Virus record (IMG/VR): IMGVR_UViG_3300031825_000369
Direction: 5' to 3' (one strand)
Source: a virus
DNA: 64,000 bases
The translations under genes were made by a program, and so were the position numbers. The notes under the pieces were generated by a model. That model was not told the DNA's origin. It worked only from the letters and a program-made list of their open reading frames with translations, and did no database searches. Every line of letters starts with the position of its first letter. The stretch's first letter is position 1. This document shows positions 2,652-46,440 of the stretch, piece by piece.

Positions 2652-2654
2652 GGC

Positions 2655-4079: not shown

Positions 4080-4082
4080 GCG

Positions 4083-4820: not shown

Positions 4821-4834
4821 TGTCGTATCCCCCG

Positions 4835-6503: not shown

Positions 6504-6508
6504 GCGCG

Positions 6509-7204: not shown

Positions 7205-7208
7205 GGCG

Positions 7209-8849: not shown

Positions 8850-8859
8850 CGGTGGCGCC

Positions 8860-9537: not shown

Positions 9538-9541
9538 CGCG

Positions 9542-9742: not shown

Positions 9743-9753
9743 AGGGGCCGCCG

Positions 9754-10518: not shown

Positions 10519-10534
10519 GGAGGCCGAAGAGAGA

Positions 10535-14691: not shown

Positions 14692-14710
14692 GGGAGGGTT
14701 CGGTTAGGCG

Positions 14711-15439: not shown

Positions 15440-15659
15440 TTTTCGCGTCCAGCTTCGCCGGGCCACTCGCCGCCGAGTCGGTAACGAGGGTGGCGTAGTT
15501 GACGTCGGTGACCCCGGCATCCGCGTCGAGCTTCGCGGTGAGGACCCGGAGGTTGGTGACCAGCTTGTTGTGTTCGGTCACGAGGTTCTGGAGCACGTCC
15601 TCGGCGCGGATCGCACCGGTGCCCAGCGCCGTGACCTTGATATCGTCGGGATTCGCCAT
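15429..15659 (-). CDS. Putative head fibre/decoration protein, 76 aa
   Basis: Coiled coil ending LTAKLDADAGVTDVNY, a motif seen in small proteins just downstream of capsid genes. Confidence 0.6.
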   Translation of the reverse strand: MANPDDIKVTALGTGAIRAEDVLQNLVTEHNKLVTNLRVLTAKLDADAGVTDVNYATLVTDSAASGPAKLDAKIGL

Positions 15660-15688
15660 GGAATCGGAATCGTTAGGGTCCGGATGCG

Positions 15689-15718
15689 GAGCGGGGCACC
15701 GGCATCGGTGCCCCGCTC
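15689..15718 (-). other. Perfect 13-bp-stem hairpin downstream of the major capsid gene
   Basis: GAGCGGGGCACCG-gcat-CGGTGCCCCGCTC; no U-tract follows on the coding strand. Confidence 0.7.
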
Positions 15719-15743
15719 ACACAGTCAGTCATCGGCCGAAGGC

Positions 15744-17024
15744 TCACGCCTCGGTCAGCGCGCTCCAGTAGGCCATGTTCCCACGGTTCGTGGTCACGAA
15801 CGCGTAGGGGAAGTCAAAACTCATCACCTTGGCGTTCTGGTCCTGGAGCTTGTCCTCGTTCGCGTTCTCGATCCCGTCGAGGCTTTCGGCGTCCTCGCCC
15901 GGCATCGGCACCATGGTCCAGCGGTGCAGCGTGCCCTTGTCCATGCCGATCCCGAACCCGGTCGGCACCTTCCGGCTCGAGAACTGTTCGATGGACTTCG
16001 TCTTCACGTTCCCGAGGATCTCCATGTTCAACGGGTCGTTGAACTGCACCGCGTTGGACGTGGACTGGTAGACGTCGCGCTCGACGCCCTGCGTCTGAAT
16101 CAGCAGGTTCATCTTGCCGCCGCCCAGGTTGGTGATCTGGTGCTGGCCCTTCTTGATCCGCGTGCCCGTGAGCCGCCCGCCCGCGGTGTCGGCCAAGGCC
16201 GGCATCCAGAGCGGGTACGTCGAGCCCGAGAGCCCGTGCACCGTCGTCGCGGTCAGGAAGTCGAGCAGTCCCGACGGCGCCTTGTTGTAGTCGGTGTGGG
16301 CGATCGTGCCCGTGGTGATCAGGTGACCGGCCGAGTTGGCGAGCACGATCTCGTCGCCGTCATCCGAGTCGACGGAGCCGGCCCAGGTGATCGTCAGGCC
16401 GTTCGTCGCGTGCACCGCCGTGATGATCCCGATCGCGTTGGCCACGAGCGCCCCGGTGCGGATCAGCGCCACGTAGTCGTCGACCTTGAAGAGCGACGCC
16501 AGGAACGCCGTGTCATCGAGCCCCGACTGCCCGTAAGCGTCCTTGAGCGCGTAGGTGCCCGACGCCTGCGTGGCGTTGGTCGAGGTCTTGGCCAGCACGC
16601 CGGTCGACACGCCGTAGAACGACGTCCCCACGCGGTTCGTCAGCCCCTCGATGAGCTTCTTGGTCTGGTACTTGGCCTGCCGGACGAGCTGCGCCTGGCG
16701 GAACTTCCGGTCCAGGTACTCGCTCGTGAGGGTGAACGAGAAGCGGTCGTTGTAGTTCGCCCACGTGAACGACAGCTCCTGCGGCGCGGCGGTCTTGGGG
16801 TTCGCCTCGTACCCGCCCTCGGGAATGAAGGCTCCCGAGCCCTGCTGGATGATGTCGATGGGCGTGGTGACTTCGCGCGCGCTCATGTCGAGATCGAACT
16901 CCTTGAGCCGCTTCGCGAGGGCCCACTCCTCGCACTTCGCCTGAAAGCCCTTGAGCACGTTGCCCTGGACCTTCCGGTACACTTTGGCGAGCGTCGTGCC
17001 CGCCGTCGTAATGCCGTAAGCCAT
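15744..17024 (-). CDS. Major capsid protein, 426 aa
   Basis: Position after the scaffold; G.FIPEGGYEANP, WANYNDRFSFTLT and FDFPYAFVTTNRGNMAYWS match HK97-fold capsid patterns; strongly biased codons. Confidence 0.85.
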   Translation of the reverse strand: MAYGITTAGTTLAKVYRKVQGNVLKGFQAKCEEWALAKRLKEFDLDMSAREVTTPIDIIQQGSGAFIPEGGYEANPKTAAPQELSFTWANYNDRFSFTLTSEYLDRKFRQAQLVRQAKYQTKKLIEGLTNRVGTSFYGVSTGVLAKTSTNATQASGTYALKDAYGQSGLDDTAFLASLFKVDDYVALIRTGALVANAIGIITAVHATNGLTITWAGSVDSDDGDEIVLANSAGHLITTGTIAHTDYNKAPSGLLDFLTATTVHGLSGSTYPLWMPALADTAGGRLTGTRIKKGQHQITNLGGGKMNLLIQTQGVERDVYQSTSNAVQFNDPLNMEILGNVKTKSIEQFSSRKVPTGFGIGMDKGTLHRWTMVPMPGEDAESLDGIENANEDKLQDQNAKVMSFDFPYAFVTTNRGNMAYWSALTEA

Positions 17025-17060
17025 GATAGTGGTTCGTCAGTGGTTAGGCGCCGCCGGGCG

Positions 17061-18239
17061 TCAGCCCGTCAGCACGTCACTCCAGTCGTCCGCGTCGAAC
17101 TGCTCCTTGAACTCGTCCCAGCTCGGCCGTGCGTGGGGCGCGGCCTTCTGTCTCCCCTGCTGCGGCGTTGCCGCGCGCGGCTTCGTGGGGGCGGGCGCTT
17201 GGGGCGCCGGTGCCACGGCCGCGGCGTTGCGCTCGGTGGCGGACTTTGCCGCCTCGAACCGCTGTCGGATGCGCGCGACGCGCTGGGCCTCGCGGCCCAA
17301 CACCTCGCGGAGGAACTCCTCGTTCACGCCAATGAAGCCCTTCGGGATGCCGTATTCCGGGTAATCCCGGTCGGCTTCCCAAAAGAGCTGCTGGCCATAC
17401 GTCGACCAGAGTTGCCCGAGGAGGTCCTGCCGCTCCTGCGGCGTCTCGGCGATCAGGGCGAGGTCCGGCGCTTGGAGCGCCTGGGTCACCGTCGTCTCGA
17501 GCCGTCCGGCGAGGAGCGGGATGATCTGCGCGCGCTCTTCCTCGGCGGCGCGCGCGGCCCGTTCCTGCTCGTGATACTGCAGCTGCGCGCGGGCTTCCGC
17601 GGCTTCGGCCTGGGCCTGGAGGATCGGGGCGTTGCGCTCGAAGTCCGCGAGCCAGTCGGCCACCGCGTCGGGCCCCTGCGCGAGCAGGTTGTCCATCGCG
17701 CTGAGGATTGCGTTGGCGCGGGCCTCGCGGTGCGTGCCGGCCTGCTCCGCGCGGCGCGCACGGTCAACGAGTTGCGTGCGTTCCGTCCGCCAACTCTCGC
17801 GGTTCGCGATGTAGTTGGGCCGGAGATGCTTCTCCCACGCCTCACGCGGGATGTACACGCCGTGCTCGTACTCGAGCGCGCCGGGGATCTCGACGTCCGA
17901 ATTGTCCGCGCGGAACTTCCACGGCTTCCCGCCGTCGGGCGGCGCGAACGCGGGAGGCGCCGCGGCCGCAACGGCAGCAGACGGGTCGACCGCAGCTCCG
18001 TCGGTCGCCGCGGGCGCTCCCGCTTTCGGGGCGAACGTCCCATCGGGGTTGCGCGGCCGGTCATCCGGCGCGGCCGGATCGGCGGGCGCCTCGGCGACTG
18101 GCGGTGCGTCGGGCGCCCCCTGGGCGCCAGCCTCCGCGGTCGCCGCCGGTGCGGCGGGGTCCTGCTCGTCACCCTCGTCGTTGAGCAGCGCGTCCCAGTC
18201 GCCCTCTTCGATCGGCGTTTCGGTGTTCGGAGCGGTCAT
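17061..18239 (-). CDS. Scaffolding protein, 392 aa
   Basis: Acidic, Pro/Ala-rich N-terminus (RNPDGTFAPK), long helices, acidic C-terminal helix; lies between portal and capsid genes. Confidence 0.75.
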   Translation of the reverse strand: MTAPNTETPIEEGDWDALLNDEGDEQDPAAPAATAEAGAQGAPDAPPVAEAPADPAAPDDRPRNPDGTFAPKAGAPAATDGAAVDPSAAVAAAAPPAFAPPDGGKPWKFRADNSDVEIPGALEYEHGVYIPREAWEKHLRPNYIANRESWRTERTQLVDRARRAEQAGTHREARANAILSAMDNLLAQGPDAVADWLADFERNAPILQAQAEAAEARAQLQYHEQERAARAAEEERAQIIPLLAGRLETTVTQALQAPDLALIAETPQERQDLLGQLWSTYGQQLFWEADRDYPEYGIPKGFIGVNEEFLREVLGREAQRVARIRQRFEAAKSATERNAAAVAPAPQAPAPTKPRAATPQQGRQKAAPHARPSWDEFKEQFDADDWSDVLTG

Positions 18240-18252
18240 CAGGTTCCTCGCG

Positions 18253-20604
18253 TTAGGCTGCGATCGAGAGGTTGGGCGCGGCGTTCGGGTCCGCCGGTGC
18301 GCCGTCCGGCGGTGCCGCGTTCTGCGGGTCAGCCGGGACGGCCGGCTGCGGAGTCACGGCCTGCACGGCGGCCTGGTACGCCATGTCGAGCGCGGCGCGC
18401 CACTCCGCCGGAAACTGGCCGTACTTGTGGCCCGCCATCGCGCGGCCGAGCTCACGCACCCGAAGCACGGCGACGTCGGGCTGGGCGTCGACCGGGCGCG
18501 GGTCGAAGATCGCCATCGCGCGCGGGTCAACCATCGGCCCTTGCGGCACCGGCGGAGCGCCGGGGATCGGCACCGGGGCGCCGGTCATCGGATCGGCCAT
18601 CACGGCCGGGGCGTACCCGCCTAACGGCACTGGTTCGGCGACGCCGTCTTCCCCCGGCCCGCCTTCCCACTTCGCGACCTGCTGGCGCACGCGGAGCACG
18701 TGCGGGTTGTCCTGCCAGCCGATCTCGGAGCCGGTCGACGTGAGCACCATCTCCCGGAGATCGTCCGGCGGGATCAACCCCGCCTGCCCATACATCATCG
18801 CGCGCTCGGCCTTCTGCATCGGCGAGAGCATCGAGAGCGAGCCCGGCACCAGGCTGACGTCCTTCGTGCTGCGCAGGTCGGCGCCGCGCCACGCCCGGAC
18901 CTTGAACTCCCCGTCCTCGCCCGTGTAGCGGAGGAGCGCCGGCACCGTGTAGTACCGGCGCACGAGTTGGAGCTTGACCCGCCCCGCGCGCTCGCTGGCG
19001 CGCGCCGCGTTCTGCCGGATGTCGGAGAGCCCGGCCTGCACCTGCGAGATGATCGTCGCGGCGTGCTTGCCGGACTGGACCGACTTGTCCTGGAGCCCCT
19101 GCCCCGCTTCCTGCAGCGAGCTCGCGTCGTCCATCTCGCGCGTCGCGATCGCGAACAGGTCCCCCGCCGGCTCGAGCGCGTCGGTCGGCACGTCTTCGTA
19201 TTTCGGCTCGCCCCCGGGATTGATGGGGATGTGCGTCATGTACTGGAGATGCGCCTGCTTGCCCTGGAGGATCGAATTCGTCGGGACGTAGACTTTGCGG
19301 TTGAGGATGCGATCGAGGATGTCCTGCATCGCGCCCGCGAGCGACGCGCGCCACTCACTCGCGGGGCCGAGTAGGTGCATCAGTCCGATGCCGTGCGGGT
19401 TGCCGCGCGGGCCACGGAACTGCTTGATCTGTGTGAGCGGAATGTCCATCGGCTCGCGCCCGTTCGGGCCGTCCATCACCCAGCCGCGGCGGAACACGAC
19501 CACCGACTCGCCCAGCACCAGCATCTCGAGCCCGTCCGGATAGCTGGGACACTCGGTCGCGTACGCCAACAGCGTGAACACGAGCCGATCGTCGACCCGT
19601 TCCGGTTTCGGGTCCTTCGGCTTCCCGTTCAGTTGCGGCAGCAGGCGTTCCGTCCGCTCCGGTCGCTCGGACCGCGTGAGGCGCTCGACGACTTCCGGCG
19701 GCGTCTCCGCCAGTTCCGGATACCACCCCTTCAGCGTGCCCCAGGTGTGGTACTTCGCGACGAGCACGATCTCGGCGTCCCAGAGATCGTCGGCCGTCTC
19801 CGGCCAGAACCGCACATGATTCGCCGGCAGCACCTCGCGGCAGAGCTTCGGATGCCAGCGGAGCGCGGCCGCCTTGGTGTCGTCCGTCAGCGCACCGTCC
19901 GGCGCGACGAACCGCCGCACGAACGGGCCCGGCCGGGGCTGGCCGGTCATCGGGTCGCGCGTCGCGTCCTCGGCGGTCGTCGCGCCCTGCCCCGCTTCCA
20001 CGGTCACCGGATGCCGGCCCCCGCCCTTCGGGTCGGCGAAGTAGCGGATATAGCCGGAGCCGAACGACGACGCGACATCGAACGCGGCGCGGTGCGCCTC
20101 GAGATCGTTCAGCGTCGATTCCGCGTCCACGTCGCGCAGCACGCGCGTCGACAGGTCGGCCGCGTCGCGGTCCTCGCTACTCCCGCTTTCGGGCGTCGCC
20201 TTGAGCACCGGCGGGTCCGCGTACACCTGGGAGCAGAGCCGTTGACAGAGGCGGTCGGACTTGTTGAAGACGGCCGGAGGGACGTCGGCGCTCCCGGGTG
20301 GCTTGTAGACCTGCCAGCTCTGTTGATCCTGCGTCTTCGTCGCCCAGACGTTGCAGTCGCCGCCGCGCCGCTTCTCGTTCACTTCCCACTCGACTTCGTG
20401 GCGCGCGTACTTCTCGCGCTGCGTCGTCCACATCCGGACGAGCGCTTTCGCGGCCTCCTTGGGCTTGAGCGTGAGCAGGTCGCCCGGCTCGGCGGGATCG
20501 CCGTAGACGCGAGAGGCGCCCTGTTCAGGCGCCTCGGTCGACTCCGGCCGGTCGATCTCGTCGGGGATCCCCGGGGCGATCCCGCCGTCGACTTCGCCGA
20601 TCAT
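18253..20604 (-). CDS. Portal protein, 783 aa
   Basis: Start ATG 20604 (ATGA overlap); large helical protein with a Pro-rich C-terminus upstream of scaffold and capsid genes; P22-like portal size. Confidence 0.85.
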   Translation of the reverse strand: MIGEVDGGIAPGIPDEIDRPESTEAPEQGASRVYGDPAEPGDLLTLKPKEAAKALVRMWTTQREKYARHEVEWEVNEKRRGGDCNVWATKTQDQQSWQVYKPPGSADVPPAVFNKSDRLCQRLCSQVYADPPVLKATPESGSSEDRDAADLSTRVLRDVDAESTLNDLEAHRAAFDVASSFGSGYIRYFADPKGGGRHPVTVEAGQGATTAEDATRDPMTGQPRPGPFVRRFVAPDGALTDDTKAAALRWHPKLCREVLPANHVRFWPETADDLWDAEIVLVAKYHTWGTLKGWYPELAETPPEVVERLTRSERPERTERLLPQLNGKPKDPKPERVDDRLVFTLLAYATECPSYPDGLEMLVLGESVVVFRRGWVMDGPNGREPMDIPLTQIKQFRGPRGNPHGIGLMHLLGPASEWRASLAGAMQDILDRILNRKVYVPTNSILQGKQAHLQYMTHIPINPGGEPKYEDVPTDALEPAGDLFAIATREMDDASSLQEAGQGLQDKSVQSGKHAATIISQVQAGLSDIRQNAARASERAGRVKLQLVRRYYTVPALLRYTGEDGEFKVRAWRGADLRSTKDVSLVPGSLSMLSPMQKAERAMMYGQAGLIPPDDLREMVLTSTGSEIGWQDNPHVLRVRQQVAKWEGGPGEDGVAEPVPLGGYAPAVMADPMTGAPVPIPGAPPVPQGPMVDPRAMAIFDPRPVDAQPDVAVLRVRELGRAMAGHKYGQFPAEWRAALDMAYQAAVQAVTPQPAVPADPQNAAPPDGAPADPNAAPNLSIAA

Positions 20605-25969: not shown

Positions 25970-26506
25970 ATGGAAGCGATCGCACTCACCCCGAAGTCCA
26001 CCGCCGCGTTGATCCGCACCATCCTCCGCCGCGCGTTCCCCGCAACGAAGTTCAGCGTCACCATCGGCCGCGGGTCCGGCGTGTCGTCCGTGCGGGTCCG
26101 ATGGACTGACGGCCCGACCGTAAAGAGCGTCGAGCGGTTCGTCGCGCCCTTCGAGTGCGGGTCGTTCGACGGCATGACGGACTCCTACAACTACGCCAAG
26201 GGCGCCGACCGGTACCTGATCGTAGACGGGCAGACGTACCACACGGGCACGCGGTACGTGCAGACGTCGCGCACCGTCTCGCCCGCGCTCGCGAACCGGT
26301 GCATCGCCGCGATCGCCGCGTATTGGGGTGGCGTCGATGTCGTCCCCCAGGCCGTGCCGGCGACGTGGGGCGACGGGTACCGGCTCGAGCCCGCGATCGG
26401 TCGCCAGCCGGTGCGCCCTGACCTTGGCGGATTCGATCACGACTGGGACACCATGATCTACCGTTGCGCCAGCGACCGTACCCAATTCACCCGGACCCAT
26501 GACTGA
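25970..26506 (+). CDS. LPD29-like (large polyvalent protein-associated) domain protein, 178 aa
   Basis: IR.ILRRAFP.TKFSV...S.RVRWTDGPT..SV..F...F....FDGMTD signature; strong AGAGGG RBS. Confidence 0.75.
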   Translation: MEAIALTPKSTAALIRTILRRAFPATKFSVTIGRGSGVSSVRVRWTDGPTVKSVERFVAPFECGSFDGMTDSYNYAKGADRYLIVDGQTYHTGTRYVQTSRTVSPALANRCIAAIAAYWGGVDVVPQAVPATWGDGYRLEPAIGRQPVRPDLGGFDHDWDTMIYRCASDRTQFTRTHD

Positions 26507-27375: not shown

Positions 27376-29106
27376 CTAGTCGTCGTGCTGGTCGCTCTTC
27401 TTGCCCTTTTCCTCCGGCGGCCGAATCCATAACCCCTTGAATGCAACAGTCTTGGAGTGCCCCGTCGAGAACCGGTCGAACCCGTGCGACTCGAGCGCCT
27501 GACTGAATGATTTCGAGGAACCGGCGTCCTCGCCGTGTTTGCTTGCCCACTCCTGCCACGACTGATAGAGCACGGCAAACAGTTCCGTGTGCGTCTTCCC
27601 TTCGACACAGCAATCGGCCACCCACGCGAGTAGAGAATCCTCCTCCTCGAAATACTTTTCGGTGGCTTTTGTCACCGAATCCGGCGGTTTGAGCCCCTGG
27701 TCGATCCACTCGATGCACCCGACGACCATCCAGTTCAGAATGGCGGGCCATTCCTCGCGGAGCTTCTCCGGGAGGTCCTTGTCCTTCTCTTTCTCGGTGA
27801 TCCGTTGCGTCCACGGGATCAGGTGCAAGCGTCGCCGAATGGCCTCGTCGACCGAGCGAATCGACGGCTTGTAGTTGCCGGCGATGACCAGCTTGAACTT
27901 GGGTTGATAGGTGAAGAAGTCCGCGCGCATGAACCGCGCGGAGATCGGATCGCCCCCGGTCAACGCCTTGATCTTCGACTCCGCCCAGCGGCGCCCCTGC
28001 TCCGTTTCCTGCGCCGTCACGAGCCGCGCCCCGCGGAGCATCGCGAGCTCGGTGGGGTGGCGGTCCGACTGCGACGCGGTGAAGGCTTCAATCGGGGCGA
28101 TTTTCGCGTAGTCGCCCAGGATGCCGTTGATCGTGTTGTGAAACGTGCCCTTGCCGTTCCCGCCGGTGCCGTACGAGAAGAACAGGGCGTGCTCGGTCGT
28201 GAGGCCGGTGAGCGCGTAGCCACACACCCGTTGGAGGAACTTCTGTAGTGTCTCGTCGCCGTTGGTGGCCCACTTGAGGAACGCGAGCCACCGCGGGCAT
28301 TTATCGCCGAGCCCCACGGCGGTGATCTTGGTCCCGTATTCGTCGGGCCGTGACGCCCGAACCGCGCCGGTGCGGAGCTCGATCGTTCCGTCGGGCGTGT
28401 TCAGGATCCACTCGTGCGCGTCCCACTGGTCCATGGTGGCCGCGAGCCGGCGATCGCTCTTCGCGAGCGCCGTAGCCGCGTTCACCGTCTTGGCGCTCGT
28501 GATGATCGACGCGAGCTTCACGCTCTCGGCCCGCGCGCGCTCGGCGTGCTCGCGGAGCACGGGCCGGGCGAGGTCAAAGACGTGCAGCGTCTCGTCCTCT
28601 TTCCAGCGGGTGCCGTCCCACATATACCACCGCTTCCACTTCTCCGTGTAGCGGAGCGTGTCCTGATACCGCTCGGTGAACGCGAGCGCCAGGGCGTCGT
28701 CACTGTACTCCGGCGGCAGCACGGGAGCGTCCGACTCGGCCGGTATCGTGACTGCCCCGCTCGTGGTGCTCGGCCCGTGCTCGCCGATCTCCGTCGGCGG
28801 GATCACACCAACGACGCGCCCCTCCTTGCGCGCGCGGGCCGGCTTGTTCGCGGCCGCCACGAGTGCCGCGTCGACGTCCACGGAGAGCCTGAGGAGCACC
28901 TCCGAGACTTCCGTCCGCATCTCTTCGGGCAGGCGCCCCACGACCGCGGTTCGCTTACTCTCCTCGCCAACGTCAACCCTGTCCTTGAGCAACGGCGTGT
29001 CCAGATCGCTCTTGCGGAAGAGCGTCAGATTGCATTTGGACTGCCCGTTGACCACCGCGACCGCGCGCACGGTCGCGCCCTCGATCACGACCGGCTTATA
29101 CGCCAT
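27376..29106 (-). CDS. P4/D5-family SF3 primase-helicase, 576 aa
   Basis: D5-N region (WYMWDGTRWKED), GTGGNGKGT Walker A, LRGARLVTAQE, KALTGGDPISARFMR, AIRRRLHLIPW. Confidence 0.93.
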   Translation of the reverse strand: MAYKPVVIEGATVRAVAVVNGQSKCNLTLFRKSDLDTPLLKDRVDVGEESKRTAVVGRLPEEMRTEVSEVLLRLSVDVDAALVAAANKPARARKEGRVVGVIPPTEIGEHGPSTTSGAVTIPAESDAPVLPPEYSDDALALAFTERYQDTLRYTEKWKRWYMWDGTRWKEDETLHVFDLARPVLREHAERARAESVKLASIITSAKTVNAATALAKSDRRLAATMDQWDAHEWILNTPDGTIELRTGAVRASRPDEYGTKITAVGLGDKCPRWLAFLKWATNGDETLQKFLQRVCGYALTGLTTEHALFFSYGTGGNGKGTFHNTINGILGDYAKIAPIEAFTASQSDRHPTELAMLRGARLVTAQETEQGRRWAESKIKALTGGDPISARFMRADFFTYQPKFKLVIAGNYKPSIRSVDEAIRRRLHLIPWTQRITEKEKDKDLPEKLREEWPAILNWMVVGCIEWIDQGLKPPDSVTKATEKYFEEEDSLLAWVADCCVEGKTHTELFAVLYQSWQEWASKHGEDAGSSKSFSQALESHGFDRFSTGHSKTVAFKGLWIRPPEEKGKKSDQHDD

Positions 29107-30217
29107 CGGGCGAGCCTCCCGAGAACGGATTCCGCCAGCCCGATACGTTCGTGGCCGTGACGTTCGCTAGCGGCGAACGCCATTTGCCTTGCGGCGGCCC
29201 GTTCTTGTTGTACTTGCGCGCGTTCACGATCGTGTCCTCGAGCTTGTCGTCCGAGAGCGGCGTGGCGTTGCCCCCGTTCCAGTCGCGGAGATGGAGCAGC
29301 GTGTCGCCGTCGGAGAGCTCGCACGCGTGCAGGAGAAACCGCGCGTACCGGAACGCGACGTCGGACCGCTTCTCCCCCGCCGAGAGCCCCGAGGGGAGCG
29401 CGCGCTGGTAGGCCGCGATCCGGCGCGCGAGCGCGTCGTCGTCCATGACGTACGGCACCCGCCTAACGGTTGGTGGCGGAGGCGGAGGCGGAGCCACGGG
29501 AACGGCGGACGGCAGGCTGAGGGGCCACGACATCCACGCCCGGGCCGCGTCCGCGCCCTCGAGCCACTGGCCGCGATCGTCGATCCGTGACCAGTGGTCC
29601 TTCGTGTGGTGGCGGCCGACGACCCGAAGCCAATTGCCGTATTCCGAGATGTGCGGTTGCTTGGGGTAGGTCTCGCTGTCGAACTCGATCTCGGCGAGAA
29701 TCCCAGTGAGCAACACGAACAGGTCGCGCGTCGGCACCGGCTCCTCGAAGAAGCACCACAGGTGGTAGCCGCCGGCGCCGTTGGAGTCCTCGAGCAGCGG
29801 CTCCAGGCCGCGGGCGCGGAACGCGTCGAGCGCGCGCCGGGCCGTCTCAAGGTTGCGCTCGGCGATCTCCGGGCTCTTCTCGTGATTGTCGATGTCGAGC
29901 GCGCCGAACAGTGACGTGTGCACCCCTTCCGGCGAGAGCGTCGTCGTGTGCAGCCCGACGACGTCGTACCTCGACCGACCGAGGAAGTGGCGCTCGAGCA
30001 CCTTCGGCGTCAGCTGCACCTTGCCGCGGTCCGCCTTCGCCGGCGCCGTCCACGCACCGAACGCGCGGGTCCCGTCGCGCTTGGGCACCATCCCGTACGC
30101 GCCCCAGACGTCGGTGCGGTTGACGAGCCGCTCCCACGCGTGCGCGGCGAGCCGGAACGCCTCCGCCCGCCACCCGTCCGCCGGCGTCGGCGGAATGAAC
30201 ACCGCTCCGCTCATCAT
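29096..30217 (-). CDS. Archaeo-eukaryotic primase (AEP-TOTE-like) with a C-terminal PriCT-like domain, 373 aa
   Basis: NRTDVWG.Y, ERHFLG...VGLH, FGALDIDNH, EDSNGAGGYHLW, GNWLR..G.H; helical C-terminus RDWN..N..PLSDDKL. Confidence 0.75.
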   Translation of the reverse strand: MMSGAVFIPPTPADGWRAEAFRLAAHAWERLVNRTDVWGAYGMVPKRDGTRAFGAWTAPAKADRGKVQLTPKVLERHFLGRSRYDVVGLHTTTLSPEGVHTSLFGALDIDNHEKSPEIAERNLETARRALDAFRARGLEPLLEDSNGAGGYHLWCFFEEPVPTRDLFVLLTGILAEIEFDSETYPKQPHISEYGNWLRVVGRHHTKDHWSRIDDRGQWLEGADAARAWMSWPLSLPSAVPVAPPPPPPPTVRRVPYVMDDDALARRIAAYQRALPSGLSAGEKRSDVAFRYARFLLHACELSDGDTLLHLRDWNGGNATPLSDDKLEDTIVNARKYNKNGPPQGKWRSPLANVTATNVSGWRNPFSGGSPDGV

Positions 30218-31317
30218 GCCGCCCTCTGGACGATCGTTAGGCCGGTGCGCGCCCGCGTGAATGCCGTATACAACCACCGCTGCCGGAGCGGCGGATCCCA
30301 GGCCCCGAATCCGTCATCCCACACGAGCACCTCCTCCCATTCGGAGCCCTGCGCCTTGTGCACCGTCAGGCAGTATCCGTAATCGATCGGCACGCGCTTG
30401 CGCCCGACCCGGCGTGCCGCGGTCGCGTCGGCGCAGAGCTCCACCGGCACCGCGGGCAAGTGGCGACCGTCCGGCGAGAGCAACGAGAGCCGCCAGTCGT
30501 CGCGTCGGATCTCACAGGCCGACCCGGCGCACTGGAGTTGCTCCCCGTTGGCGACGCCGTAGTCCGGCGAGTTGCGGAGCACGACGACCGTCTCGCCGTG
30601 CTTCGGGTACGGCGACGCGTGGCCGTAGTGGTCGCGATAGATCGCGTTCACGCGCGCACGATTGCGGTTCGTGCCGGCGATGATCTGTGCGGCGCCCGCG
30701 AGGATCGGCAACTCCTCGGCGGCGATGTCGCGCGCGTCGAGGAACCGGAGCCCGCCCTCGTCACGCGCCGGGACCGCGCGCCCTTGCCGGACCGCCGTGG
30801 CGAGCCGGAGGATCGGGTCGTCCTCGGCCTGCCGATGGACCTCAGTCAGCAGGTAGTCGGGCTCGCGCGCCGTGAAGTAGCCGGCCCCGTCCACCGGTGG
30901 GAGCTGCGCCGGGTCACCGAGCACGAGCACCGGCGTGCCGAACGCGAGCACGTCGCGCGCGAGCTGCGCGCCCACCATCGAGCACTCGTCGAGGATGAGC
31001 AGCGACGCGCCCCTGAGATCGCTCAGCGGGTTTGGTGACCAGGTGACGTTGCCGAACACGTCCTCGGATCGCTTGTAGATGAGCGAGTGCAGCGTCGAGG
31101 CGCCGTCGCACCCCTTCGACCGGAGCACGGCCGCCGCCTTCCCCGTGTACGCGGCGAACAGCACGCGGCCCGGGACCATGTCGGCGACCTCGCGAGCCAG
31201 CGTCGTCTTGCCCGTGCCGGCGTAGCCGGCCAGGTAGAACGTCGGACGGACCGAATACCGGAGCCACTCGTCGACGCCCTGGAGCGCCGCCTGCTGCTGT
31301 GTGGACCATTCGGTCAT
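30214..31317 (-). CDS. SF1 (RecD/Dda-like) helicase, 367 aa
   Basis: GYAGTGKTT, ILDECSMV, LGDPAQLPPV, LTEVHRQ, YCLTVHKAQGSEW, WLYTAFTRA. Confidence 0.93.
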   Translation of the reverse strand: MTEWSTQQQAALQGVDEWLRYSVRPTFYLAGYAGTGKTTLAREVADMVPGRVLFAAYTGKAAAVLRSKGCDGASTLHSLIYKRSEDVFGNVTWSPNPLSDLRGASLLILDECSMVGAQLARDVLAFGTPVLVLGDPAQLPPVDGAGYFTAREPDYLLTEVHRQAEDDPILRLATAVRQGRAVPARDEGGLRFLDARDIAAEELPILAGAAQIIAGTNRNRARVNAIYRDHYGHASPYPKHGETVVVLRNSPDYGVANGEQLQCAGSACEIRRDDWRLSLLSPDGRHLPAVPVELCADATAARRVGRKRVPIDYGYCLTVHKAQGSEWEEVLVWDDGFGAWDPPLRQRWLYTAFTRARTGLTIVQRAA

Positions 31318-32216: not shown

Positions 32217-32361
32217 CGGGAACCCCCCGCGCGCGAAAGTCGTACGAAACGTCGTACGCTGCGATTTTTTTGGTCCCGGGCGGCCGCGCGCTCCGTACGC
32301 TTCCTAACGCTTCCTACTCTGAGCGCGAGCCGTTGACCCCGCCGTTGCGGGAGCGACGTTT

Positions 32362-32413
32362 GACTTAGGATCCAGTGGGGCAACCCGTCCGGGTTCGAGT
32401 CCCGGCTTTCGCA
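32362..32413 (+). other. attP core = 3' half of tRNA-Leu(UAG)
   Basis: GA-CTTAGGA (TAG anticodon loop)-TCCAG, long variable arm TGGG-GCAA-CCCG, T-arm CCGGG-TTCGAGT-CCCGG, acceptor CTTTCGC-A. There is no D-arm; it lies 22 bp from the int stop. Confidence 0.88.
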
Positions 32414-32434: not shown

Positions 32435-33685
32435 TTAGTCATCCCTCCTGAGCTCGGCGCGCGGGCGCTCCTCGTCCGCAGTCGCACGAGCGGTCGTAGT
32501 CGGATTCACGAGGTAAGGCACTTTCGGTTTGCCTTCGCCTTTCGATTCGGTCGCGCGTTGCACTTCGGCGAGCCGGTCCTCGAGCGTGCGCGTGATGTGG
32601 GCGTAGGTCTCGGTGACCTGGTAGACCGTGTTCCCGAGGAGATCGGCGATCCACTCCCACGACATCCCCTTGAGGCGCCATCGCACCGCGCACGAGTGGC
32701 GCGCGTCCTTGAGCGTGTAGTCCACCACGCCGGCGGCCTTGCACCCCTGCTCGTGATGGTGATGGAGCATGTGCCGCGTCACCCCCGGGAACACGTCATC
32801 GTTAGGCCCGAGGGCCATCTCGGCGACGTAGGCGCGGAGCCGCGGCAGCGCCCAGGGTTCGATGAACACAACGCGGTTCACCAGCCGGCGCGACGTCTTC
32901 CCCTTCACGTGCGCCGTGCCCTGGTCCAGGTCCAGGTGCCGGAGCTTGAAGTGCGGCGGGAGCGCGTACCCGACGTCCGTGGTGCTCGCCATAACGAACG
33001 CCAGCGCCGCCCGGATCCGTGCGGCCAGGGGCCGCGCCTCGCGCGTCGGGTTGACCGCGTCGACGATCGCCCGGTCGGTCGCTTCCGTCTCCCACCGCTC
33101 GCGCTTCTTGTTCTTGGCCGGCGACGCAACCCGCCCCTTGATCGGGTTCTCCGTGAGCACGGTCATCTCCAGCAGGTACGCGACGAAGGAGTAGAGGGCG
33201 TACAGGTACTTACGCCGTGTCCCGCTCGTGACGTCGGGCAGCTCCGAGAGCCATCGGCTCACGGTCGCCGGCGTCAGGTCCGCGCTCGTGAACGTGCCCG
33301 TGACCAGCGTCTCCACCTGCGCGCGGTACGTCGTCGCCGTGGTGGGGTTGTCCGTGTTCCGCCGGACCCACTTCCCCCACGCGTCGAGATGCCCCGCGAG
33401 CGGGACCGCCGAGAGCTCGGCGCGGAGATCGTCGAGCCGGCGCGGCGCGTAGAACTGCTCGTAGAGCCGGAACAGCGTCAGCTTGCGCCCCTGCACCTTC
33501 CGCCCCTCGGCGACGGCGTACAGGAACTCGCGCGTCTCCGCGCGCTCGGCGAGATGGTCGCGCATCCGCACGAGCTCCTTGAGCATCGCGTCGCCGTCGA
33601 TCCCCGCGCTCCGCTGCACCAGCTTGCCCGTTCGCGTCGGGAGGTAAATCTGCCCGCGCGAGCCCTTCATGAACGCGGCGCTCAT
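32435..33685 (-). CDS. int: Tyrosine recombinase/integrase, 416 aa, atypical active site
   Basis: SAM-like core-binding domain (TATTYRAQV, TRRKYLYALYSF), KGKT, YTLKDARHS, IADLLGN, TETYAH; adjacent to attP. Confidence 0.88.
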   Translation of the reverse strand: MSAAFMKGSRGQIYLPTRTGKLVQRSAGIDGDAMLKELVRMRDHLAERAETREFLYAVAEGRKVQGRKLTLFRLYEQFYAPRRLDDLRAELSAVPLAGHLDAWGKWVRRNTDNPTTATTYRAQVETLVTGTFTSADLTPATVSRWLSELPDVTSGTRRKYLYALYSFVAYLLEMTVLTENPIKGRVASPAKNKKRERWETEATDRAIVDAVNPTREARPLAARIRAALAFVMASTTDVGYALPPHFKLRHLDLDQGTAHVKGKTSRRLVNRVVFIEPWALPRLRAYVAEMALGPNDDVFPGVTRHMLHHHHEQGCKAAGVVDYTLKDARHSCAVRWRLKGMSWEWIADLLGNTVYQVTETYAHITRTLEDRLAEVQRATESKGEGKPKVPYLVNPTTTARATADEERPRAELRRDD

Positions 33686-33993
33686 AGGTCGATCCGGTAC
33701 GTGAGGCGTGAGGCGACGTACGCGAGGCACTGCGACTTGAGATAGCGCACGTTCCCGCGCGTCTTGCCGGGCTTCGTCAGCGGCGCGCGCGGCACGTCGC
33801 TCTTTTCCAGCCACTCCGGCGACACCTTCATCAGCGCCGCGGCTTCGTCCAGGTCCAGCACTTCATCGTTGAGTGCGGCGAGGAACCGGAGGGCGCGCTC
33901 GACGGCGTTCGGTGCGCCAATGGCCCCGTCTGACGGCGACGGGGCCACGGGCACCACGGGGCGGCGAAGCGGCGCCGCACCACCACGGCTCAC
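33682..33993 (-). CDS. xis: Excisionase-like winged HTH (HTH_17 type), 103 aa
   Basis: EVLDLDEAAALMKVSPEWL...VRYLKS; directly upstream of int with an ATGA overlap. Confidence 0.75.
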   Translation of the reverse strand: MSRGGAAPLRRPVVPVAPSPSDGAIGAPNAVERALRFLAALNDEVLDLDEAAALMKVSPEWLEKSDVPRAPLTKPGKTRGNVRYLKSQCLAYVASRLTYRIDL

Positions 33994-37291: not shown

Positions 37292-37501
37292 TCAGTCGGA
37301 CGACGCGGCCGCCACGGAGTCGCGAGAGATCACGACCTGACCGGCGCGCATTTCCGCCACCAGTTCACCCGCGATGACGCGGGTGAGCACCTTGTGGCGA
37401 GTGCAGCCGAGCGCCTCCGCCGCCTTCGGCAGGGTCATCCACCGGTCACCCATCCCCGGCGTTTTTGCCGGGGTCTTCTTGCGAGCCGCCGCAGTCGACA
37501 T
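37292..37501 (-). CDS. Cro-position DNA-binding protein (HTH_17/Xis-like), 69 aa
   Basis: WMTLPKAAEALGCTRHKVLTRVIAGEL; divergent from the repressor gene. Confidence 0.8.
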   Translation of the reverse strand: MSTAAARKKTPAKTPGMGDRWMTLPKAAEALGCTRHKVLTRVIAGELVAEMRAGQVVISRDSVAAASSD

Positions 37502-37627: not shown

Positions 37628-38368
37628 ATGTCGACATTTGCGGAGCGCCTCGGGATGGCGCTCGTGCGGAAGGGCCATAAAACCGGAAGCCGCTACACCC
37701 AGACCGAACTCGCGAAGGCGATCGGCGTCGAGCGGAACACGGTGAACGGGTGGATGCGGCGCGGATCGTTGCCCCGGGATCCGGCCATCCTCTCGCGGCT
37801 CGCGCGAGAGCTCGACGTCAACATCCCGTGGTTGACGGAGGGCACGGGCCCGGGATTCCCCGGGAGCGTACGCCGCGACGAGGCAGCGGTCGACGCCCTG
37901 CGGGATGCGCCAAAACCGCCCTTGAGCGGCGGGGCGCGTGTGTGGATTCAGGAGGAGTTGTTGGACTACGCGCGCGCCGGGGCGACCCAGCAGGAAGTCG
38001 ACTTTGCGAAAGCGTTGCTCGAGTCCGTCCCGCTCTGGGCGTTCTACTCGAACGGCGTCGATGACTACGAGACCGAGGCGGGAGTGTTGCGCGGGCTCCG
38101 GTCAATCGGATCGCTCATTCGCTACGAGCTCCGGCTCCGGGGGCGGCCGGTGCAGACGCGCCCGTTGGTCGACTACACCGCAGCCATGTCCGCGATTCTC
38201 TCTCTCGACGAGTTCGCAGGTCCGGCGAACGCCGGACCTGCGGGCACGAAGTCCGGTGCCCCGTCCGTGTTGGGCAGCGCCGCCCAGCGCGCGGCGGCCG
38301 CGAAGCGCGAGCGGGCGGAGGAGCGGGCCGCCGAGCCGCCGCGCCGGCGACGGCCGAAAGGCGCCTAG
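37628..38368 (+). CDS. cI: CI-like immunity repressor, XRE HTH, 246 aa
   Basis: TFAERL...YTQTELAKAIGVERNTVNGWMRRGSLP...LARELDVNIPWL..G; divergent arrangement. Confidence 0.85.
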   Translation: MSTFAERLGMALVRKGHKTGSRYTQTELAKAIGVERNTVNGWMRRGSLPRDPAILSRLARELDVNIPWLTEGTGPGFPGSVRRDEAAVDALRDAPKPPLSGGARVWIQEELLDYARAGATQQEVDFAKALLESVPLWAFYSNGVDDYETEAGVLRGLRSIGSLIRYELRLRGRPVQTRPLVDYTAAMSAILSLDEFAGPANAGPAGTKSGAPSVLGSAAQRAAAAKRERAEERAAEPPRRRRPKGA

Positions 38369-41575: not shown

Positions 41576-43423
41576 CGTCTTCGCGCGCACCGGCTGACGC
41601 GCGTTCGCCCGGATCGTCCCGATCACGTTCTCCAACCAGAGGCGCCGCTCGTCGTCGGACATCGCGGCGTACTCGGCGTCGCCGACCATCGCGGCGAGCG
41701 CCTGCATTGTCTCCCGTCCAGCGTCCCGCACGAACGCCTCGTAGTCCGCGCGCGCGATCGGCGTGCTCCGCCCCCCTTCCCGCATCGTCCGCGACGGCAT
41801 CCCGATGGAGACGCCGAGCCGGCGGAGCTCGGTCAGCACCGGCGAGTCGCTGGCCCGCCGCATTGGGAACGGGCTCGCGACGGCCGCGACCCGCTCCGCC
41901 GTCGACTTCCGCACGAACTCGCCCGTCGGGGCCTGAGCCTTCGGGAGCGCGAACGACCCGCCGGGGACCCGCGAGAGCACGCGCTCGCCTAACGTGCGGG
42001 CGTCCCGCGCGTACGGGTCCGCGGCGCGGGTGGCCTGGCCGAGCACCGCCGGCACCGGGATCTGGCTCACCAGGAGCGACGACGCGGCCCGCTCGTCGCC
42101 GAACGCATCGATGAGGCGTTTGACGCCGTCCAGGTAGCTCTGCTCGGTCAGGACATGCCCCGCCGCGAGGGCCCCGCGCACCGCCTGCTCCGGCACCCCC
42201 GCGTCCGGCTCTTCGTCGCGGATGCGAGCGAGCTGCGCGCCCATGAACAGTGGGACCGACGCGGGCCCGAGCGACAGTAGGCCGACCCAGTGATCGCCGA
42301 GGCGCACGGCGAAGGGAATGCGCCCGTCGGCCCGCCACTGGGCGCGCTCCTTCGCGTCCTCCGGCATCGGCCCGGTGATGCGCCCCTCCTTGTAGAGCGC
42401 GAGCCCGGCCGCCCACATTGCGGTCCCAACGCCGGCCGTCGCGAGCGCGCGCGCCCGTTGCGCCTGGTTCCCCAGCACGTTCGGCGACAGGAGCCCGAGC
42501 GGCGAGACGGCCGCCATCTTGTACGCGACCGACGACGGCACACCGACGAACGGGAGGTTTTGCTCGAGCATCACCGTCCCGACCTGCGCGCCCCGTTGCT
42601 TGGCGCGCTGCGCCGCCTGCGCGTAGGGCGAGGCCGCGGGATCCGGCTCGGTGTCGGCGAGTCGCCGCGTCGCCTGTTTCGCGCCGGTCGCGAGTTTCGA
42701 GAGGAGGTTGCGGTCCTTGAACGTCGCGTAATGCGCGTCGTCCGTCGCGCGCGCGAGCATCTCCTCGGTCGGATGCTCGAAGTATTGCCGCGCACGGGCC
42801 GCGCGTTCCGCCCCCGTCGCCCCCTCGCGGATCGCCAGCAGCTTGGACTGCATATAGATCGATCCGTCGAACGCCGCGCGCCAGAACGGGCGGTCCGCCG
42901 CTTCGAGCACCGCGAACGCGCCATCGACGAGCGTCTGCGTCACCGGGCTCGCGTACTTCACCCGCTCGACGTCGAGCACGTTGGTAATCGCCTCGGCGTC
43001 GAGCCGCGCCGAGAGCTCCTGGACGAAGTTGCGGACCCGCTGGCCGATCGGCTGGCCGGCCGTCGCCGCGTACGCGCCGCGGACCGGCGCCGTCCCCTGC
43101 TTGAACCCCCGCCACATCGCACCCACCCCGTCGGCGTCGAGGGCGTTCGCGACCTCGCGCAGCTCGCGAGGTTTCACGCGAAACCCCGTGCGCGCGGAGC
43201 GCCCGAGCGAGAGCAGGTAATCGACCCCCGCCTCGGCCGGCTGCAGCACGAGCGCGCGCATCCCGCCCCATGACGTGTTGCCCGCGACCGCTCGCATCGG
43301 CGTCACGAGCGAGCCCACGAACCCGGCCTTGATGGCGGTCGTGGCCTTCTCGGTGCCGGAGACGGTGCGGATCTCCGCGACGAACCGCGCGAGCTTGATC
43401 CTCGCCAGCGCGCAGGCGCTCAT
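41555..43423 (-). CDS. Large internal virion/polyvalent protein C-terminal part (LPD38-like), 622 aa
   Basis: GGAGG RBS plus ATGA overlap at 43423; SYLDGVKRLIDAF...QATRAADPYARD...LSRVPG...LP....TGE pattern. Confidence 0.7.
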   Translation of the reverse strand: MSACALARIKLARFVAEIRTVSGTEKATTAIKAGFVGSLVTPMRAVAGNTSWGGMRALVLQPAEAGVDYLLSLGRSARTGFRVKPRELREVANALDADGVGAMWRGFKQGTAPVRGAYAATAGQPIGQRVRNFVQELSARLDAEAITNVLDVERVKYASPVTQTLVDGAFAVLEAADRPFWRAAFDGSIYMQSKLLAIREGATGAERAARARQYFEHPTEEMLARATDDAHYATFKDRNLLSKLATGAKQATRRLADTEPDPAASPYAQAAQRAKQRGAQVGTVMLEQNLPFVGVPSSVAYKMAAVSPLGLLSPNVLGNQAQRARALATAGVGTAMWAAGLALYKEGRITGPMPEDAKERAQWRADGRIPFAVRLGDHWVGLLSLGPASVPLFMGAQLARIRDEEPDAGVPEQAVRGALAAGHVLTEQSYLDGVKRLIDAFGDERAASSLLVSQIPVPAVLGQATRAADPYARDARTLGERVLSRVPGGSFALPKAQAPTGEFVRKSTAERVAAVASPFPMRRASDSPVLTELRRLGVSIGMPSRTMREGGRSTPIARADYEAFVRDAGRETMQALAAMVGDAEYAAMSDDERRLWLENVIGTIRANARQPVRAKTLRTKRQ

Positions 43424-46400
43424 CCCCCACCTCCACACGTTTCGGCCGCTTCACGGGCCAGCCGCCGGATCTCCAGCATCACCGCATCCGGGAGCGGGCG
43501 GTCGCCCGCGAGCTTCTTTGCCTGCACGATCCACAGGTCCGGGTCGAGGGAGCGATGGGCCAGGTCGCGGTAGTAGCCGAGCGACCGCCCGGCCTGCGCC
43601 CGTTCGCGCACGATCGCCGACAGCGCCTCGTCGGTCTGCCGGGAGGCTTCGTCGATCACCCGTTGCGCGCGGGTCAAGTCGTCGCCGGAGAGCTCGCCCG
43701 AGTTGAGGGCGCGCGACGCCGCTTCCATCGCCGCGGTGTTCTCGCGGACGATGTCGTGCAGGGCCGCGACCTGATACCCGTCGAGCCGCTGCAGCTTGGC
43801 CTGGTCGATCTCCAACGGGTTGGCGACCAGCTTGCGCCGGAACTCGTCGCGGAGCGCGCGCTGCGCGTCGAACGACTGGTAGCCACGCTGCGCCTTGAGC
43901 TCGTCGACCCGCGCCTCCACCCGCGCGGCGACGGAGCGCGCGATCGGCGATTGCTCGCCGAGGTACGCTTTCCAGTTGGTCGTGACGTCGGCCGCCGGCT
44001 CCATCGGGGGCCGCGGTTCTGGAGTAGCGCCTGACGGTGCGGCGTCCTGTCCAGCATCTCCAAATTTAGATATGCTCGCCTCAGGCGCCGCCGGCTCCTC
44101 TTCCCCGAACCCGAAGAACGAGTCGTCCGCGTCCGCGAGCTCGTCGGCCGCCCGCATCGCGTCACGCTCGAGTGATTCCTTGAGCCGGTTGGCGTGGATC
44201 ACCCCGTCAGCGATCGAGTCGTCGGAGTGGCCGCGCGACTTGAGCACCGCATCGATGCGTTCCTGGATGCGCTTGTAGTCCTCGAGGTTCTGCAGCGCCT
44301 TCGCTTGGCTCGAGACTTTCCCTTTGCCCGTCGAGACCTGGACCGTGACGGACTGGTCATCGTCGAATGCCGAGCGGTACTGCGCGCGGCGCGTCGCGTC
44401 GGCGACCTTCTCCTGCAGTTCGTCGAGTTCGCGGAACAGTCCCTCATCCGAGACCGATTCCGGGTTGCGCAGCTTCCCGCCTTCGGTGCGCGCTTCCGAG
44501 AACAGTGGCACCTCGCGGCCCGCGCGCTTCGGTCGGAGGTCGGCCCCGGGCGGTTCAGTCCCGCCGAAGCTGACGGGCTCGCCGATCACCGGCGGCGCGT
44601 TGCCCGCAGGGGGCTCCGCCCGTATATTTGCTGTAGAGCCAGTCGGTTCGGCAGGCGCAACTCCGGGAGTAGTCATCCGGCCCGTTCCGCCTTCGCCTGA
44701 GCCGACTGGCTCAAATTTTGTCAGCTGATGATCGTAGTGGAGGCGCCCCGCACTCGTCTCCCGCGCCACGATCTCGACGTGGTAGTCCCTCTCGCCGATG
44801 CGCAGGTAATTCTCGAAACGCAGATAGGCCGGGACTGATCGGGCTTTGGCGGCGTCGCGGTTCGCCTCCGACCCCAGGAACCGCGCGCCCTCGATCAGCT
44901 CCGGCAGCGCATAGACCGCCTGGAGCTTCTCGACGCTGGCACGCGGTTGCAGGGACTCTTTGAGGCCGGTCGTCGAGAATCCGATTTCCCATCCCGTCTC
45001 TCGATTGAGCACCCGGCGCGGATGGAGATGCGTCCTCGCCCACTCGCGCGTGGCCGCGTACCATCGGTGCGCTGGCCCGACTCGGTCGTTCACGACCTCG
45101 TCGCCGGCAATGTGCGGGTACTCTACCTCTCGGTCGCCGACGAACTGGCGCGCGGTACGCACCTGCCCAGGCGGGAGTTGCGCCGGTCCACTGACCGATT
45201 CTGGTGCCGGACGCCGCCCGACCTTCTTGGTGTACTCGGCGATGTCCGACACGCGCGACGAGTAGCGCGGCGCGTCTTCGGGCGAGACGCCGAACACCGA
45301 CACGGGCTGGGACTGCGGCGACTCGACCGGCGGCCGCCACGGCGACGACGGCCCTTCCGTTGGCGTCGGCGGGTTGCGCCGCGCCTCGAGTGCGGCGAGT
45401 CGGGCCGCCCCCTCGTCGCGCGAGATGCGGCGAACGCCCGACTTCGGCACCGCCGGCGCCTCACTCACCGCGGCCGGAGACGGACCCTCGACGCCTTCGA
45501 GCGAGTAGGTCTCGTAGGCGCGGTCCGCCGGCGGCTTCGGGACCCGCGGCGCTTCCGGCGGGAGGTCCGCCCCAACCACGCGCGGCGCCTCCTCGCGGAG
45601 TGCGTCGGTGAGCTCGCGGTAGAGGTCCGCGTACGTCGCCTCGGCCCGCGCGATGTCCTTGCCGAGCGCGAGCCGCGGCACCTTCCCCGCCCCGGCGGGC
45701 CGGCGGGCCGGTGCCATCGCGGGGGCCGCGCGCCCCGGTGCCGGTCCCTTCGCTTCGCGCGCCACGTCGTCGAACGCGCGCACGAACCCCTCGGAGACGT
45801 CCGTGGTGCGCGCGGCGATCGCGCGACTCGTGGCGCCCGTGGCCTTTCCGGCCCCCCTTATCGTGCGGTCGAGCGTGGCGCCCATGAGTGCGCCTAACGC
45901 GGGATCGTCCGGCGACTGCACGGCGCCGAACCCGGCCGCCGCGGCGAGCGGACCCACGACCCGCGACGCCAGCGGGAACGCCGCGTTGGCCACCGTACCG
46001 ACCGCGTCACGCCCCAACTGTTCGCGCGAGATCGCGCCGGGCGTGTCGCGGGTAATTGCCTGCCCAGGCCGCAGTCCGCCGGGAAGCGCGCCGACCTTCC
46101 CGAGCGTGTAATCCCCCTCGGCCACCCGCCCACCCTCGACGGGTGCCGTGAAGAAGCGCACCGGGGCCATGACGACCGCATCCGCGATGGCCTCGGCCGT
46201 CTCCTTCGGATGCGTGACCATCTGTTTTATCGCCGTGCCGTAGCGCTTCAGGAGCGGTGGGCGGTCGGCGGTGTCCTCCTCTAGGAGATCCGAGTATGCC
46301 GCATCCGCGGTCAGCAGATCAGCGTACGGGTCTATGTCACTGGCGCGCGGTCGGATCTCCGGCCGCTGGCCCCGGCGCCTAACGCGACTCGAGTCGGGAC

Positions 46401-46440
46401 GGGTCGGTGCTTGGCCTCCCCCTTTTTCGTTCCCGGTCAC
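43420..46440 (-). CDS. Large DNA-ejection/polyvalent protein with an LPD3-like domain, 1006 aa
   Basis: Internal domain (about 44709-45065): VLNRETGWEIGFSTTGLKE...KLQAVYALPELIEGA...FENYLRIGERDYHVEIVARE...HYDH. Confidence 0.75.
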   Translation of the reverse strand: MTGNEKGGGQAPTRPDSSRVRRRGQRPEIRPRASDIDPYADLLTADAAYSDLLEEDTADRPPLLKRYGTAIKQMVTHPKETAEAIADAVVMAPVRFFTAPVEGGRVAEGDYTLGKVGALPGGLRPGQAITRDTPGAISREQLGRDAVGTVANAAFPLASRVVGPLAAAAGFGAVQSPDDPALGALMGATLDRTIRGAGKATGATSRAIAARTTDVSEGFVRAFDDVAREAKGPAPGRAAPAMAPARRPAGAGKVPRLALGKDIARAEATYADLYRELTDALREEAPRVVGADLPPEAPRVPKPPADRAYETYSLEGVEGPSPAAVSEAPAVPKSGVRRISRDEGAARLAALEARRNPPTPTEGPSSPWRPPVESPQSQPVSVFGVSPEDAPRYSSRVSDIAEYTKKVGRRPAPESVSGPAQLPPGQVRTARQFVGDREVEYPHIAGDEVVNDRVGPAHRWYAATREWARTHLHPRRVLNRETGWEIGFSTTGLKESLQPRASVEKLQAVYALPELIEGARFLGSEANRDAAKARSVPAYLRFENYLRIGERDYHVEIVARETSAGRLHYDHQLTKFEPVGSGEGGTGRMTTPGVAPAEPTGSTANIRAEPPAGNAPPVIGEPVSFGGTEPPGADLRPKRAGREVPLFSEARTEGGKLRNPESVSDEGLFRELDELQEKVADATRRAQYRSAFDDDQSVTVQVSTGKGKVSSQAKALQNLEDYKRIQERIDAVLKSRGHSDDSIADGVIHANRLKESLERDAMRAADELADADDSFFGFGEEEPAAPEASISKFGDAGQDAAPSGATPEPRPPMEPAADVTTNWKAYLGEQSPIARSVAARVEARVDELKAQRGYQSFDAQRALRDEFRRKLVANPLEIDQAKLQRLDGYQVAALHDIVRENTAAMEAASRALNSGELSGDDLTRAQRVIDEASRQTDEALSAIVRERAQAGRSLGYYRDLAHRSLDPDLWIVQAKKLAGDRPLPDAVMLEIRRLAREAAETCGGGG

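Follow-up and report, generated by a model that had tools for sequence, protein, structure and literature searches.

The integrase encoded at positions 32435-33685 of the window (the whole stretch of DNA that was analysed, 64,000 nt) lacks the first catalytic arginine (Arg-I) of tyrosine recombinases and carries an acidic residue, Asp237, in its place. Comparisons across its family make it probable that Arg267, four residues past the catalytic lysine, replaces Arg-I and that Asp237 is a relocated structural acid. In about 150 distinct proteins a residue of opposite charge stands in place of Arg-I, and these proteins nevertheless seem able to integrate at tRNA genes. The principle of a relocated arginine is known from IntDOT, the integrase of CTnDOT; its position after the lysine and the acid at Arg-I appear to be a new variation. 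As the complete attP, attB and enzyme sequences are known, the claim can be tested with a few point mutants.

The phage, its host and its attachment sites

The 64-kb window is one turn of a 44,523-bp circle continued into a second: from position 44524 onward it repeats 1-19477 exactly (self-overlap 19,477 bp, zero mismatches). Its gene content includes a P22-like portal, terminase, tail and virion proteins, a primase/helicase block and a CI-like repressor, and the 44.5-kb element is a temperate phage of a soil bacterium from the Gemmatimonadota. An identical integrase gene was found inside a 153,730-bp host contig, as part of a prophage. The DnaK flanking this prophage is 74-87% identical to Gemmatimonadota DnaKs, and two of those Gemmatimonadota genomes have dnaK within a few kb of a family integrase that adjoins a tRNA-Leu, all on one contig. 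The chromosome carrying the prophage is Gemmatimonadaceae-like. Among GenBank phages no close relative was found; the best matches were short pieces of 23-41% identity.

Other genes of the phage include a replication block adjoining attP (27376-31317, - strand) with a RecD/PIF1-like helicase, an AEP-TOTE-like primase and a D5-like helicase. The CI-like repressor (37655-38368, + strand) is divergent from a 69-aa HTH gene (37292-37501, - strand) that matches an excisionase/regulator PHROG and is, besides the gene next to int, another candidate for a directionality factor. Possible anti-defence or injected proteins are a 1006-aa LPD3-domain protein (43420-46440, - strand) and a 178-aa LPD29 protein (25970-26506, + strand), both domains being polyvalent-protein-associated.

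The attachment features of the window are as follows.

32362-32378 (+), 17-bp att core, found in each of attP, attL and attR
32364-32370 (+), 7-nt anticodon loop within the core, likely strand-exchange region
32362-32413 (+), phage-borne 3' half of tRNA-Leu(UAG), which rebuilds the host tRNA at attL
32239-32258 (+), left pair of 8-bp direct repeats with a 12-bp period, candidate arm sites
32481-32500 (+), right pair of the same 8-bp repeats, inside the 3' end of int, candidate arm sites

The core lies 57 bp past the int stop codon. In the host contig the prophage is flanked by attL, with an intact tRNA-Leu(UAG), and attR, and the two 17-bp cores are 44,523 bp apart, which is the period of the window. 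The window in turn joins the phage left arm, the core and the phage-type tRNA half; it is the matching attP circle, as expected from excision within the core. That attP is real and preserved, as the initial annotation had held, is thus borne out by the tRNA half and by the core shared with attL and attR. The pattern of the candidate arm repeats was defined from the site itself, and any chance estimate for it would be circular. In run SRR9007495, two Logan contigs stop exactly at the two edges of the core, which suggests a graph fork, with integrated and excised forms in one sample. Past the core, 10 positions distinguish the phage tRNA half from the host one, and the tRNA folds with either half; integration exchanges the variable arm and two T-stem pairs of the host tRNA-Leu for the phage version (32379-32405 versus attR of locus L003), with base pairing preserved. 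The identical 50-bp tRNA half occurs in an unrelated circular phage (L012).

The same arrangement recurs across the family. A tRNA gene was found no more than 800 bp from the 3' end in 24 of 32 family genes located in genomes, 23 of them convergent; the targets are tRNA-Met, three tRNA-Leu isoacceptors and tRNA-Asn. On four other phage contigs, one of which has terminal repeats, the attP-type tRNA halves start at or just before the anticodon loop. Searches of the phage found no second tyrosine recombinase and no match to serine recombinase or transposase families. Judged from this DNA anatomy, the integrase appears to work.

Integrase gene, active-site residues and fold

The gene and the residues discussed below are listed here together with the gene adjoining int.

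32435-33685 (-), integrase gene, 416 aa, with an arm-binding-like N-terminus, core-binding and catalytic domains, and a lambda-Int-like three-domain fold
33101-33103 (-), Arg195, conserved linker Arg
32975-32977 (-), Asp237 (GAC), Arg-I column, probably a relocated structural acid
32966-32968 (-), Tyr240, canonical Glu/Asp-I position, where the acid is lost family-wide
32897-32899 (-), Lys263, catalytic Lys of the beta2-beta3 hairpin
32888-32890 (-), Arg266, neighbour of Arg267 and fallback donor
32885-32887 (-), Arg267 (Lys+4), proposed substitute for Arg-I
32753-32755 (-), His311, family-specific conserved His
32708-32710 (-), Lys326, His-II position
32699-32701 (-), Arg329, Arg-II, invariant
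32630-32632 (-), Asn352, His/Trp-III position
32603-32605 (-), Tyr361, nucleophile, invariant
33682-33993 (-), 103-aa HTH-like gene, probable excisionase, overlapping the int start by 4 nt (weak matches, PHROG E 0.16-0.23)

The residues that the initial annotation named, now numbered Asp237, Lys263, Lys326, Arg329, Asn352 and Tyr361, all stand where it had placed them, and its reading of a box I without Glu was correct, since Tyr240 stands three residues past Asp237. Of its statement that int is coupled to xis, the 4-nt overlap with the int start stands, and the adjoining gene, a weak excisionase/HTH match at these PHROG E-values, is plausibly xis.

The register of box I is secure, because a profile built from 113 homologues aligns gap-free through box I to Escherichia coli XerD, two archaeal XerA proteins and IntI4. 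In this alignment the acid of the family falls on the Arg-I of XerD, XerA and IntI4, and no normal Arg is aligned in box I. The family profile also matches XerA in the PDB (4a8e, E 4e-23); phmmer with the single integrase protein gave no match there. The AlphaFold model (mean pLDDT 87) places Asp237 directly N-terminal to a short box-I helix (238-241). Its beta2 ends with Lys263, and Arg267 comes just ahead of beta3, in a hairpin (residues 261-270, pLDDT 64) that has the lowest confidence within the catalytic domain. The core-binding and catalytic fold was matched by Foldseek with probability 1.0 to XerA, lambda Int, XerD and Cre, and the VIA fold comparison gave Z 14-18; with lambda Int it gave Z 17.5 and an rmsd of 8.1 over 319 aligned residues, with model residues 1-375 on lambda Int 13-356. 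The N-terminus of the model (4-47) forms three short strands and a helix, and the alignment on lambda Int starts at residue 13. The last 31 residues of the integrase (32438-32530) are predicted to be disordered, are common only to homologue P0002, and overlap the right candidate arm repeats.

By fold, and by the Tyr nucleophile, Arg-II and the hairpin Lys, the protein belongs to the tyrosine recombinase superfamily. It departs from the canonical R-D/E-K-H-R-H/W-Y set of lambda, Cre and Xer at Arg-I and Glu/Asp-I (D237, Y240) and likewise at His-II and His/Trp-III (K326, N352). At E-values up to 0.1 the sole Pfam match was PF00589, and neither an arm domain nor Arm-DNA-bind_5 or SAM_5 was matched. 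The score of 23.7 bits lies under the gathering cut-off of 27.1, and such integrases are easily missed or mis-called as inactive.

Family-wide conservation and the proposed substitute arginine

About 170 homologues were collected at roughly 24-45% identity, plus one (P0002) at 73%; residue counts out of 148 refer to homologues with a complete catalytic domain. The Arg-I column holds Asp or Glu, which swap freely, in 146/148 and Arg in none, and the +3 position is acidic in only 4/148. Arg-II (Arg329) and Tyr361 are invariant, and the hairpin Lys is present in 132/135 (98%). The remaining positions are variable: the His-II column is His in 65/148 and Lys or Arg in 83/148, and at His-III most distant members have His, the close ones Asn, Thr or Ser. 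D/K/N as an exact triple is found in 10/148 and E/H/H in 55/148. What has changed across the family is therefore the loss of Arg-I only; the positions of Lys326 and Asn352 vary and their residues have precedents. The dN/dS, computed on gene pairs of other family members than the window integrase and P0002, was 0.11 for the closest pair (94% identity) and did not exceed 0.55 in any other pair with more than 50% identity. Named genomes that carry the family belong to the Gemmatimonadaceae/Gemmatimonadales. A family member is present in at least 26 of 401 sampled Gemmatimonadota genomes, with the acid in all of those where box I was recovered. Genomes G060 and G160, which are marked as unpublished, were left out of the analysis. 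Neither a family with an acid at Arg-I nor phage integrases of Gemmatimonadota were found described in the literature searched, whose coverage took in few subscription journals.

The view that the protein represents a subfamily rather than a decaying gene agrees with the acid in 146/148 and with purifying selection among the family pairs, and the suspicion that close homologues might carry R/H/H did not materialise, Arg being absent from the Arg-I column of all 148. The check proposed in the initial annotation, of whether D/K/N is conserved under purifying selection, came out in favour of the acid (146/148, family dN/dS up to 0.55), with K and N found to vary. Its suggestion that the three substitutions jointly make a new chemistry is not supported, with only the change of Arg-I to an acid family-wide and the exact triple in 10/148.

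Arg-I of Cre is reported to tolerate only His or Lys (PMC2943603), so an active enzyme without Arg-I needs another source of positive charge. A second Gemmatimonadota clade, separately derived from canonical integrases that target tRNA-Cys and tRNA-Ser (loci L041:1459-2673 and L042:1447-2664; proteins P0187-P0227), has Thr, Ser or Ala at Arg-I, keeps the +3 Glu and carries an Arg at Lys+4. This Arg is found in 123/133 family members (129/135 when counted by column) and in 35/35 of the second clade, against 0/50 relatives that bear Arg-I, and Lys+4 is the only column that is basic in both groups without Arg-I yet not in canonical relatives. A tree that leaves out the trait columns joins the second clade to the canonical integrases with a support of 98, and a single origin of both groups without Arg-I is rejected (AU p 0.003, trait columns removed); the pairing of a Lys+4 Arg with the loss of Arg-I thus arose twice. 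In evolutionary terms the correlation counts some two to four events rather than 170. In the window integrase the four-residue spacing of Lys263 and Arg267 is kept, although both residues stand one column away from their place in most homologues, with Arg266 adjacent. A basic residue in the Arg267 column is not unique, since Xer proteins have a Lys (once an Arg) there alongside a retained Arg-I. Two of the canonical relatives (L047:39-1349 and L043:2693-3089) lie at the ends of tRNA arrays, of nine and four tRNA genes in the fetched stretch.

The four family members without the Lys+4 Arg all have an Arg at Lys-2, which elsewhere occurs in 1/129. The Lys-2 Arg is thus present in 5/133 family members, of which four are related sequences and the window integrase is not one; the members are P0060, P0100, P0112 and P0140, which lack the Lys+4 Arg, and P0148, which has both. 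Its position agrees with the region in which the IntDOT substitute lies (PMC8138268). The substitute residue would have been gained twice independently and, in a few members, given up for one placed as in IntDOT, and the hairpin for that reason looks like a recurrent source of a catalytic Arg. The earlier idea of an Arg supplied from elsewhere in the fold gains support from the counts at Lys+4.

Proposed mechanism, alternatives and known systems

Recombination would take place between attP and the anticodon loop of tRNA-Leu(UAG), by ordinary 3'-phosphotyrosine chemistry of Tyr361, Arg329 and Lys263. The guanidinium of box I would be replaced by that of Arg267, which stands where beta3 begins, four residues past the catalytic Lys. 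The structural acid of the +3 position, the anchor of Arg-I and the Lys loop, would have moved into the empty Arg-I slot as Asp237, which probably positions Arg267 through a putative contact, and Lys326 and Asn352 would be later, tolerated changes at the two least essential positions. In Cre, Glu176 bridges Arg173 and the backbone of Lys201, a structural role in which substitution is tolerated (PMC2943603), so the beta2-beta3 hairpin abuts the Arg-I site. Within the family, loss of the acid at +3 coincides exactly with the appearance of one in the Arg-I slot, and the second clade keeps the +3 Glu and has no acid at Arg-I; because gain and loss go together, a relocated structural acid would be the simplest reading. 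Cleavage by Cre R173E persists once the charge of the phosphate is neutralised (PMC4499138), so an acid at Arg-I is not in itself fatal. The Cre variants H289K and H289R are inactive, and Lys326 therefore presumably points elsewhere, like Lys220 of poxviral TopIB.

An active enzyme could also draw the missing charge from the linker Arg195, from Lys326 at His-II or from His311, in cis or from a neighbouring subunit, which is considered unlikely. Arg195 is found in 125/135 family members and His311 in 115/135, the latter being family-specific (residue 311 is Trp or Phe in canonical relatives); His-II is Lys or Arg in 83/148, the inter-domain linker of Cre lies near His-II, and a His in the Arg-I position can stand in for Arg-I of Cre (PMC2943603). 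Arg195, the first candidate considered, was rejected because it is equally conserved in canonical relatives (36/38) and so represents no compensating gain, and Lys326 was rejected as a general donor because 65/148 have His at His-II though they lack Arg-I. In the second clade, which also carries the Lys+4 Arg, residue 311 is Trp and His-II is His.

That the acid is itself catalytic, through binding of a divalent metal or a proton relay with His311 and Lys326, is very unlikely. If true, the family would be one of tyrosine recombinases with a different transition-state chemistry; to our knowledge, such acid or metal chemistry has not been described for tyrosine recombinases. The acid does occupy, in 146/148, a column that normally contacts the scissile phosphate, and the same domain has an invariant-looking Asp327 besides His311. 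However, Asp and Glu substitute for each other freely, the acid in this column comes with loss of the structural one at +3, Asp327 is also present in 37/38 canonical relatives, and the second clade lacks Arg-I without having an acid there and with its +3 Glu kept. A metal would moreover make the new Arg needless. No support was thus found for the metal-assisted acidic residue suggested in the initial annotation; a moved Glu/Asp-I, with +3 acidic in 4/148, is simpler.

Less probable again is a catalytically dead protein that serves as a DNA-binding or architectural subunit, with a host recombinase exchanging the strands. Arg-I is 91% conserved in tyrosine recombinases and Cre accepts only Lys or His there, non-catalytic repressors with a recombinase fold exist (SroF and YopR are among the fold matches), and Gemmatimonadota genomes hold several canonical recombinases. 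Against this, Tyr361 and Arg329 never vary in a family of about 24-45% identity, in which the Lys too is kept by 98%. The att sites do not resemble dif but are anticodon loops of tRNA genes, and four kinds of tRNA gene are targeted, each of which would need its own helper. Recent decay or misalignment, to which the Pfam score below the cut-off (23.7 vs 27.1 bits) might point, is refuted by the family-wide pattern, purifying selection, a gap-free box I and precise att sites.

For the proposed substitution by Arg267, the closest known parallel is IntDOT, in which Arg-I is replaced by a downstream Arg (PMC8138268). IntDOT, of the IntCTnDOT subgroup, is active without Arg-I, as the window integrase appears to be, and takes a substitute Arg from the region of the beta2-beta3 hairpin (PMC8138268; bioRxiv 10.1101/542381). 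Its donor precedes the Lys and closes the first beta strand, whereas the proposed donor of the window integrase stands four residues after the Lys. The IntDOT donor is reportedly R285, with K287 as the catalytic Lys, and its Arg-I position is said to hold a Ser. The window integrase also differs in having an acid at Arg-I and in the loss of the +3 acid, and hosts and element type differ as well. It falls outside the IntCTnDOT subgroup, as both the Arg before the Lys and the Arm-DNA-bind_5 plus SAM_5 N-terminus are absent.

With lambda Int and the arm-binding integrases that target tRNA genes, the window integrase shares the three-domain fold, an attP with a tRNA 3' half, candidate arm repeats, an adjoining xis-like gene and the retained Lys, Arg-II and Tyr; it differs from their R-D/E-K-H-R-H/W-Y consensus at Arg-I, Glu/Asp-I, His-II and His-III. 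SSV1-type archaeal integrases likewise have Lys at His-II (K278xxR281; PMC5861418, Table 1), but they retain both Arg-I and Glu-I, become split when they integrate, and show no relationship at the family level. Of the features of that type, the window integrase has KxxR; Arg-I is absent and the core lies outside the int gene. SNJ2-type integrases are active with small residues at Glu/Asp-I and His/Trp-III, functioning with Ala at His-III (PMC5861418), but keep Arg-I and His-II.

Precedents for the two variable positions also come from topoisomerases, since Asn replaces the last His in bacterial TopIB (PMC2647283) and Lys stands at His-II in poxviral TopIB (PMC2647283; PMC2943603). These enzymes differ in keeping Arg-I and are monomeric relaxases rather than recombinases. 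In the IntDes subgroup the first Arg is also shifted or replaced and His-II is changed (PMC8138268), but with Gly at Arg-I and Tyr at His-II, and only in Desulfovibrio.
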